Below, in pieces: positions 44,614 through 45,273 of a DNA stretch of 64,000 nt; position 1 is the stretch's first letter, and each line of letters starts with the position of its first letter. The DNA is taken from assembly GCA_963833285.1 (NCBI GenBank), contig CAWHXM010000005.1, positions 419,436 through 483,435 on the forward strand, written 5' to 3'. The notes beneath the pieces were generated by a model. The model saw nothing but the letters and a program-made list of their open reading frames with translations, was not told the DNA's origin and ran no database searches. This stretch comes from an uncultured Chloroflexia bacterium (lineage in GTDB: Bacteria > Chloroflexota > Limnocylindria > Limnocylindrales > CSP1-4). A program made the translations under genes and the position numbers.

Positions 44614-45273
44614 TTGGCCAAGACGCCCCGCACCTGGACGGGCGCTCGTACGCCGTCCGGACTCAAGAGGGTCCGTCAGGCCCAGAGCCGCCACGAGGTC
44701 CTCCAGCCCCGACGCAGCGCCGCGAAGACGTATGTCGCGAAGGCACTGAACGCGGCCGCCAGCCCGACGACATCGACGATCGATCCCGAGGCCGCCCTGG
44801 CCGAGGCGCTCAGCGCCCTCGATCGCGCCGCCAAGGCCGGCGCGATCCACCCGAATGCCGCGGCGCGACGCAAGTCCCGCCTGACCCGCAAGGTCAATGC
44901 CGCGCTCGGTGGCGAGCACGTCCAGTCCGGCGGTCGCGTCGTCAAGACGACCGGCAAGGCCGCCGCTGCCAAGGCCGCCAAGGCGCGCATCGCGGCAGGC
45001 AAGGCCGGCAAGGCGAAGGGTGCCCAGACGGCCGCCGGCAAGGCCCGCGCCGCGCTGAGCAAGACCGCCCGAGCCGAGGCCGCCGCGGCCAAGGCCGCGG
45101 CCGAAGCCGCGGCGACGTCCGAGGCGCCCGAGGCCAAGCCGGCGAAGGCCAGCACGACCAGGGCGAGCGCCACAAAGGCAGCACCGAAGAAGCCCGCAAC
45201 AACCACGAAGGCCGCTCCGAAGGCGACCGCCAAGGCTGCGCCGAAGGCCAGGAAGGCCGCCATCAAGGAGTAG
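44614..45273 (+). CDS. rpsT: 30S ribosomal protein S20 with a ~120-aa Lys/Ala/Pro-rich C-terminal tail
   Basis: GAGG RBS plus TTG 44614; SGLKRVRQ, RRSAAKTYVAK, LDRAAKAGAIHPNAAARRKSRL; divergent from the lepA region as usual for rpsT. Confidence 0.9.
   Translation: MAKTPRTWTGARTPSGLKRVRQAQSRHEVLQPRRSAAKTYVAKALNAAASPTTSTIDPEAALAEALSALDRAAKAGAIHPNAAARRKSRLTRKVNAALGGEHVQSGGRVVKTTGKAAAAKAAKARIAAGKAGKAKGAQTAAGKARAALSKTARAEAAAAKAAAEAAATSEAPEAKPAKASTTRASATKAAPKKPATTTKAAPKATAKAAPKARKAAIKE

Follow-up and report, generated by a model that had tools for sequence, protein, structure and literature searches.

An Extended Ribosomal Protein S20 with a Conserved Basic Module and a Variable Tail in Limnocylindria

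The rpsT Locus

The DNA analyzed here, called the window in what follows, is a stretch of 64,000 nucleotides of contig CAWHXM010000005.1 (GenBank assembly GCA_963833285.1). Positions 44614-45273 of its forward strand form an ORF of 219 codons, which starts with TTG and ends with a TAG stop codon at 45271-45273. Over residues 11-95 the encoded protein is matched by both S20 profiles, PF01649 (E 1.9e-16, 60.9 bits, with a cut-off of 29.5) and TIGR00029 (59.8 bits, with a cut-off of 33), and the profile search returned one match in the source assembly (3.0 Mb in 7 contigs, 83% complete), which makes rpsT its sole S20 gene. The locus is a genuine single-copy bS20 gene of a CSP1-4-type Limnocylindria bacterium. 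The class was searched as five families, labeled f1 to f5, where f1 is the family of the source genome.

The start of the gene rests on several observations. A Shine-Dalgarno-like GAGG (44601-44604, + strand) can be read 9 nt upstream of the start codon, no alternative in-frame ATG, GTG or TTG occurs within the first 80 codons, congeners have TTG or GTG at the equivalent position, and several of them have a stop codon only 4-11 codons upstream of it. The absence of any other in-frame start, the congener start codons and the close upstream stops together make the start secure, and a 10-residue N-terminal extension is therefore translated. The rpsT gene of E. coli likewise has a weak TTG/GTG start. 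The frame has a GC3 of 0.86-0.92 (core 0.86, tail 0.89) in a region of ~72% G+C; all 28 Lys codons are AAG, and within the genus dN/dS is below 0.5 in each segment of S20.

An EamA-family transporter ORF (43542-44666, - strand) lies divergent from rpsT, and as listed it overlaps the rpsT start by ~50 nt. Because its Pfam match begins at residue 67, the true start is probably ~65 codons further in, which would leave an intergenic region of ~140 nt. On the other side, and convergent with rpsT, a predicted membrane protein of 201 aa without a Pfam family is encoded at 45370-45975 (- strand). A homologue of this protein adjoins rpsT in the small-genome family f2 too (L021, 925-1494), and the rpsT neighborhood is thus conserved. 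Scans for promoters and terminators gave nothing useful, and the Rfam scan of the whole window matched no family.

Anatomy of the Extended Protein

S20 is among the most length-constant of the ribosomal proteins. The canonical form, as known from Thermus, E. coli, Bacillus, Mycobacterium and the chloroplast, usually has ~80-110 residues, and the solved bacterial chains span 81-108, against 219 in the present protein, which is therefore ~2.5 times the normal size. What it shares with canonical bS20 is the three-helix core at residues 11-95, together with its single-copy, monocistronic gene. In chloroplast bS20c, which is also long, the additional length lies at the N-terminus.

The protein can be divided into five segments, all encoded on the forward strand. 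Residues 1-10 (44614-44643), beginning with MAKTPRTW, constitute the N-terminal extension, which has a within-genus dN/dS of 0.076, is kept in f1, f2 and f4 and is missing from tail-less S20 (alignment A1). It is followed by the S20 core, a three-helix bundle at residues 11-95 (44644-44898; dN/dS 0.15), and by a variable Gly-rich linker at residues 96-112 (44899-44949), for which dN/dS rises to 0.41. The sequence-only reading that drew attention to this gene had described an S20 core of ~98 aa; the core is there, but it ends at about residue 95-99 and comes after the conserved N-terminal extension.

Beyond the linker, residues 113-160 (44950-45093) form a basic module with the lowest dN/dS of the protein (0.065). 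This segment carries a net charge of +11; 23 of its 48 residues are Ala (48%), Pro does not occur, and Ile and Leu, two residues in all, are its sole larger hydrophobic residues. Alignment A2 shows invariant Gly, Thr and Ala positions, with an invariant TAAGKA at the center. The rest of the protein, residues 161-219 (45094-45270), is a distal tail for which composition and pLDDT predict disorder and whose dN/dS is 0.43. Its 59 residues include 11 Lys, 24 Ala, 6 Pro and 8 Thr, its net charge is +9, and the motif KAAPK occurs three times. A tandem-repeat scan of the DNA found weak 12-15-bp periodicity alone (scores 39-50). The whole 120-residue tail has a net charge of +21.

In the AlphaFold2 model the core consists of helices 14-49, 58-75 and 80-98, with a block-mean pLDDT of 87-98, while the linker has values of about 57-61. 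Two helices are predicted in the module, at residues 115-138 and 140-167, with a pLDDT of 56-74. For residues 171-219 the block-mean pLDDT is 46-58, and the end of the protein is accordingly predicted to be disordered. An S20 protein with a C-terminal basic tail of ~120 aa, as first described, is borne out by both the ORF and the S20 profile matches. Its description as histone H1-like holds for residues 161-219, on the grounds of composition, disorder and sequence turnover, but not for residues 113-160, which are the conserved module.

Distribution within the Class

The genomes of f1 measure 2.3-3.9 Mb and those of f2, its sister family in the same order, 1.0-1.4 Mb; f3, f4 and f5 are more distant. 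Partly from the descriptions in PMC13212565, f1 is probably CSP1-4, f2 Limnocylindraceae, f4 QHBO01 and f3 P2-11E. The family tallies include some unpublished genomes (G131 and G122 in f4, G135 and G102 in f3), on which no conclusion rests; alignments A1-A3 include none.

A match to rpsT was found in 18 of 24 congeners, with 73-91% identity over the matched length and nearly full length in 16; the six congeners without any match are incomplete assemblies. The tail frame is kept open in relatives down to 73% identity. Two of the copies, those of G011 and G019, carry frameshifts, each at a different place and most likely due to errors in assembly. S20 of other f1 genera is 241-253 aa long, the one exception, of 270 aa, having a frameshifted-looking end, and the lengths in f4 and f2 are 169-186 and 126-162 aa, respectively. 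Furthermore, 74 of 80 loci named Limnocylindrales or CSP1-4 are complete, with 203-300 aa and a median of 223. Among the relatives, the part after the core varies from 107 to 203 residues. A survey of rpsT lengths in the lineage, which had been proposed together with the original observation, thus showed that the tail is present in every complete copy, whether from the genus, from the family as a whole or from two further families.

In f3 and f5, S20 has 84-101 aa, with a stop codon directly after the core in the 12 copies read. An unrooted 16S tree sets f3 and f5 apart from f1, f2 and f4 with a support of 1.0, and the extension therefore maps to one branch. According to PMC13212565, in which the class was rooted with an outgroup, four families follow in phylogenetic order with P2-11E first; hence, if f3 is P2-11E, the extension is a gain. 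The relatives with a stop after the core, which had been thought of as a sign of stop loss or error in the source sequence, are instead those of the tail-less families and probably mark an evolutionary gain rather than an error.

The two other tail-bearing families depart from f1 in different ways. In f4, a short acidic end takes the place of the K/A/P tail behind the module. In f2, the module HMM gave no match at E <= 10, and a simple short Lys/Ala/Pro tail remains; the genome-reduced f2 has lost the module.

Two observations concern the databases. Both the core and the tail of rpsT are often frameshifted in long-read MAGs and metagenomes (L003 from G011, L020 from G019, P0123, P0128, P0136, P0139 and others), and the resulting gene calls are chimeric, with an upstream part that is an out-of-frame reading of S20. 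In addition, a Limnocylindria-type module occurs on contigs filed as Verrucomicrobiia, Methylomirabilota or Anaerolineaceae MAGs (L150, L162, L166, L175 and L182, three of them only 3-7 kb long); these odd taxonomic labels are probably binning or labeling errors.

Conservation and Uniqueness of the Module

Within the genus the module is nearly invariant, and purifying selection acts on it more strongly than on the core (dN/dS 0.065 vs 0.15), which makes it the most constrained segment of S20 at short range. Its identity is 65-75% across f1 genera. Between f1 and f4 the order is reversed, and the module is less conserved (31-38%) than the core (52-60%).

A search of 1.84 billion representative proteins with a profile built from 20 modules gave 79 matches at E <= 0.001. 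The S20 core is present in 57 of them, and the remaining 22 are mostly frameshifted S20 genes with an out-of-frame core, the rest being fragments or apparent assembly chimeras. Among the matches examined, the module thus appears to occur on S20 of Limnocylindria only. In agreement with this, a search of the ESM Atlas returned Chloroflexota S20 clusters only, a search of the PDB with the module gave no match at E <= 10, and all 45 solved S20 chains align just to residues 11-99.

Other basic C-terminal tails, of 31-108 residues, are found on S20 of at least five further Chloroflexota families (f9, f24, f27, f28 and f34; L192-L201, L204, L205, L210 and L211), the extension of Limnocylindria being the longest among those compared. 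Some of the tails outside Limnocylindria are Arg/Thr-rich rather than Lys/Ala-rich. A common origin was considered and rejected, as hhalign gave a probability of 0.2% and the module HMM had no match in those families. At the profile level these tails do not resemble the module of Limnocylindria, which is conserved in sequence, and the module HMM matched neither f2 nor any other Chloroflexota family searched.

A scan of the whole 3.0-Mb source assembly for Lys-rich, basic low-complexity sequence returned S20, two secreted proteins with Pro/Thr linkers and one further ORF. S20 is the sole Lys-rich low-complexity protein of the assembly that is conserved in the lineage, and the basic tail is therefore specific to S20 and not a genome-wide habit. 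The further ORF, which lies outside the window (L191, 590-1570, + strand; source assembly G000:C5, ~635.6 kb), encodes 327 aa without a Pfam family, with a Lys/Thr/Ala-rich N-terminus of 85 residues and an Ala/Glu/Val/Gly-rich body. It was considered as a stand-in for the nucleoid protein HU and discarded, since it was not found in a congener or in four other genomes of the class.

HU and Other Nucleoid Proteins

HU is regarded as near-universal in bacteria. The HU/IHF family (PF00216) was found in none of the 81 tail-bearing genomes searched (0/35 in f1, 0/5 in f2, 0/40 in f4 and none in the source genome) and in 38 of 40 tail-less genomes (37/39 in f3 and 1/1 in f5). Within the class, HU and the S20 extension are exactly complementary in their distribution. 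Since both traits map to one branch, this match amounts to a single coincidence. Lsr2 and histone-fold proteins were searched for as well, and none was found. YbaB/EbfC was detected in four of the five genomes tested, those of f1 and f4 included, and not in the f2 one.

The comparison was extended to 201 Chloroflexota genomes, namely the source genome and 200 further ones drawn from the phylum (the tallies include the unpublished G315, G298 and G188, on which no conclusion rests), and HU was not found in 107 of them, an unusual result for so widespread a protein. The HU-less families f21, f13, f14, f22, f16, f26 and f30 have a canonical S20, the HU-less f24, f27 and f28 have S20 tails of 31-95 residues, and the HU-bearing f9 has tails of 44-108 residues. 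There may be some excess of S20 tails among the HU-less families, but there is no rule. A general link between HU loss and S20 tails, perfect in the class, thus fails across Chloroflexota and has been kept only as a lead.

16S rRNA and Other Ribosomal Proteins

The 16S rRNA of the tail-bearing families is 1492-1507 nt long (in the source genome, G000:C5:26130-27631, L073). Compensation between protein and rRNA was considered and rejected, because no indel separates tail-bearing from tail-less families in an alignment of 38 16S genes; the extension therefore neither fills nor follows an expansion or reduction of the rRNA. Only base substitutions distinguish the two groups. One of these differences concerns the apical loop of helix 6 (V1, ~70-90), which is CUUG in 31 of 31 tail-bearing and GCAA in 7 of 7 tail-less sequences. 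As helix 6 is hypervariable and the switch falls on one branch again, it is recorded as an observation only.

Four 16S genes of f3 and f5 (L099-L102; G126, G058, G052 and G061) have an insertion of ~260-300 nt at about position 758, which could be an intervening sequence or an intron. These genes are 1761-1795 nt long; the other f3 genes and all those of f1, f2 and f4 are without the insertion.

The hibernation-promoting factor HPF (PF02482) is encoded elsewhere in the source assembly (G000:C3:180855-181133) and in an f4 genome (G049:C2:1792659-1792937), and a search for it in genomes of f2, f3 and f5 gave no match. S21 is present in 5 of 5 genomes tested. The idea that the tail replaces another ribosomal or hibernation protein was abandoned in view of S21 in all five genomes and of HPF in the source and f4 genomes.

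Comparison with Known Basic Tails

The distal tail resembles the tails of actinobacterial HupB (MDP1), Ku and TopA and of chlamydial Hc1/Hc2 in its composition (19% Lys, 41% Ala, 10% Pro, 14% Thr), in predicted disorder and in a fast sequence turnover that keeps the composition, and perhaps also in its short KAAPK-type repeats. There are differences too. The tails of HupB, Ku, TopA and the Hc proteins sit on domains that bind or process DNA, whereas here the tail sits on the rRNA-binding S20 core, the only domain of the protein. Moreover, no clear array of short tandem repeats such as PAKKA, KAAK or KPAA was seen, and the module has no counterpart in any of these tails.

A second point of reference is given by the extensions of ribosomal proteins surveyed in PMC6821194; as there, a small ribosomal protein carries an added basic terminus rich in Ala and Lys. 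According to that study, bacterial ribosomal proteins commonly bear low-complexity regions, and basic additions of this type are already a known kind; its main text makes no mention of S20. Among the papers searched, none described an extended S20, or a lack of HU, in Limnocylindria.

What the Extension May Do

We lean, if only slightly, toward the module being a ribosome-bound arm that contacts rRNA and the distal tail serving as a flexible polycation of the 30S subunit, the mechanism being inferred. One side of a single deep split in the class (f1, f2 and f4) carries the N-terminal extension, the module of ~48 residues and a variable basic tail, with the module lost in f2. On the favored reading, the S20 core would occupy its usual site at the bottom of the 30S body. 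According to the review PMC10931766, S20 contacts helix 44 and the 5' domain, and E. coli can live without it. The module, without a hydrophobic core of its own, would fold on binding into two Lys/Arg/Ala helices lying on the unaltered 16S rRNA surface near the S20 site, in the manner of buried extensions known from other ribosomal proteins. The distal ~60 residues would stay disordered and project on the solvent side of the 30S body, as a whisker binding polyanions non-specifically, be it rRNA, mRNA or DNA.

The rRNA-contacting arm is the simplest reading because the tightest selection falls on a basic, Ala-rich segment without a hydrophobic core that is found on S20 only. Conservation in sequence, basic character, lack of an own hydrophobic core and purifying selection are features of rRNA-contacting extensions, and the module has all four. 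Against this stand the modest module helices (pLDDT 56-74), the lack of a 16S indel, the module identity between f1 and f4, which falls below that of the core, and the loss in f2. This loss in a streamlined family implies that the module is useful or advantageous but dispensable. That HU was not found in any tail-bearing genome also leaves room for a role directed at DNA.

One alternative applies to the distal tail, which might have grown largely neutrally, as tolerated replication slippage in a GC-rich gene, and have no specific job. The variation of the post-core length from 107 to 203 residues, the dN/dS of 0.43, the weak 12-15-bp tandem periodicity and the rise of similar but unrelated basic S20 tails in several other Chloroflexota families all speak in its favor. 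However, every f1 copy retains a net positive charge and a composition of K/A/P/T, without drift of a frameshift-tolerant kind, and Lys is costly at ~72% G+C, yet all 28 Lys residues are retained; neutral growth is rather improbable for the tail and inapplicable to the module, with its dN/dS of 0.065. A long frame produced by stop-codon loss, sequencing error or a wrong choice of frame has a negligible probability. It is true that G011, G019 and many metagenomic gene calls are frameshifted inside rpsT, but dozens of independent assemblies keep this frame open and conserved, and it bears a strong coding signature together with purifying selection.

A further reading places the tail at the nucleoid. 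S20 is made in step with ribosomes, and little free protein is therefore to be expected, which counts against a basic tail that binds chromosomal DNA, either on free S20 or as a ribosome tether, and partly stands in for the lost HU. What suggests such a role is the complementary distribution of HU/IHF and the extension in the class, the failure to find Lsr2 and histone-fold proteins, the position of S20 as the sole conserved Lys-rich tail in the genome, and the composition of the distal tail, which is like that of the tails with which HupB, Ku and TopA bind DNA (PMC5676037, PMC3553676 and PMC7398561). Still, HU loss and extension fall on the same branch, their link fails elsewhere in Chloroflexota (HU-less families with canonical S20, and the HU-bearing f9 with tails), YbaB/EbfC occurs in those f1 and f4 genomes that were tested, the module as the segment under the tightest constraint is not H1-like, and f4 lacks HU yet also lacks a long K/A/P tail. 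Such moonlighting is consequently unlikely, and the fuller proposal, that the extended S20 of HU-less Limnocylindria doubles as an abundant nucleoid-binding protein or as a tether between ribosome and nucleoid, is a little less likely again. Because the bottom of the 30S body is solvent-exposed, the tails could also tie one 30S subunit to another, or to a membrane or mRNA, and so serve the storage or clustering of ribosomes. A net charge of +21 over 120 residues would suit this function, as would slow growth in soil, a trait deduced from the ecology in PMC13212565. But the tail resembles neither HPF nor RMF nor any Pfam family in sequence or profile, no sign of self-association can be read from the sequence, which has no heptad hydrophobic pattern and only Ile and Leu as larger hydrophobic residues, and HPF has a separate gene in the source genome and in the f4 genome. 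Tethering of this kind is very doubtful, and the suggestion in the sequence-only reading that S20 might be a hibernation factor finds no backing in these comparisons.

Significance

Limnocylindria are an uncultured class that reaches an abundance of up to 18-30% in some soils and sediments (PMC13212565). For work on such material, the module provides a clean sequence marker for the clade, and in long-read and metagenomic assemblies frameshift errors often fall in the low-complexity tail. That HU was not found raises the question of how DNA is organized in these Limnocylindria families. If the doubtful nucleoid role of S20 were true, a ribosomal protein would have taken over part of the chromosome-organizing role of a lost, near-universal histone-like protein. 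As for the module, its conservation, tighter than that of the ribosomal core, means that it must have a defined partner. Once identified, this partner would point either to a new contact between protein and rRNA, on a 16S rRNA that is otherwise ordinary, or to a new role of S20 outside the ribosome.
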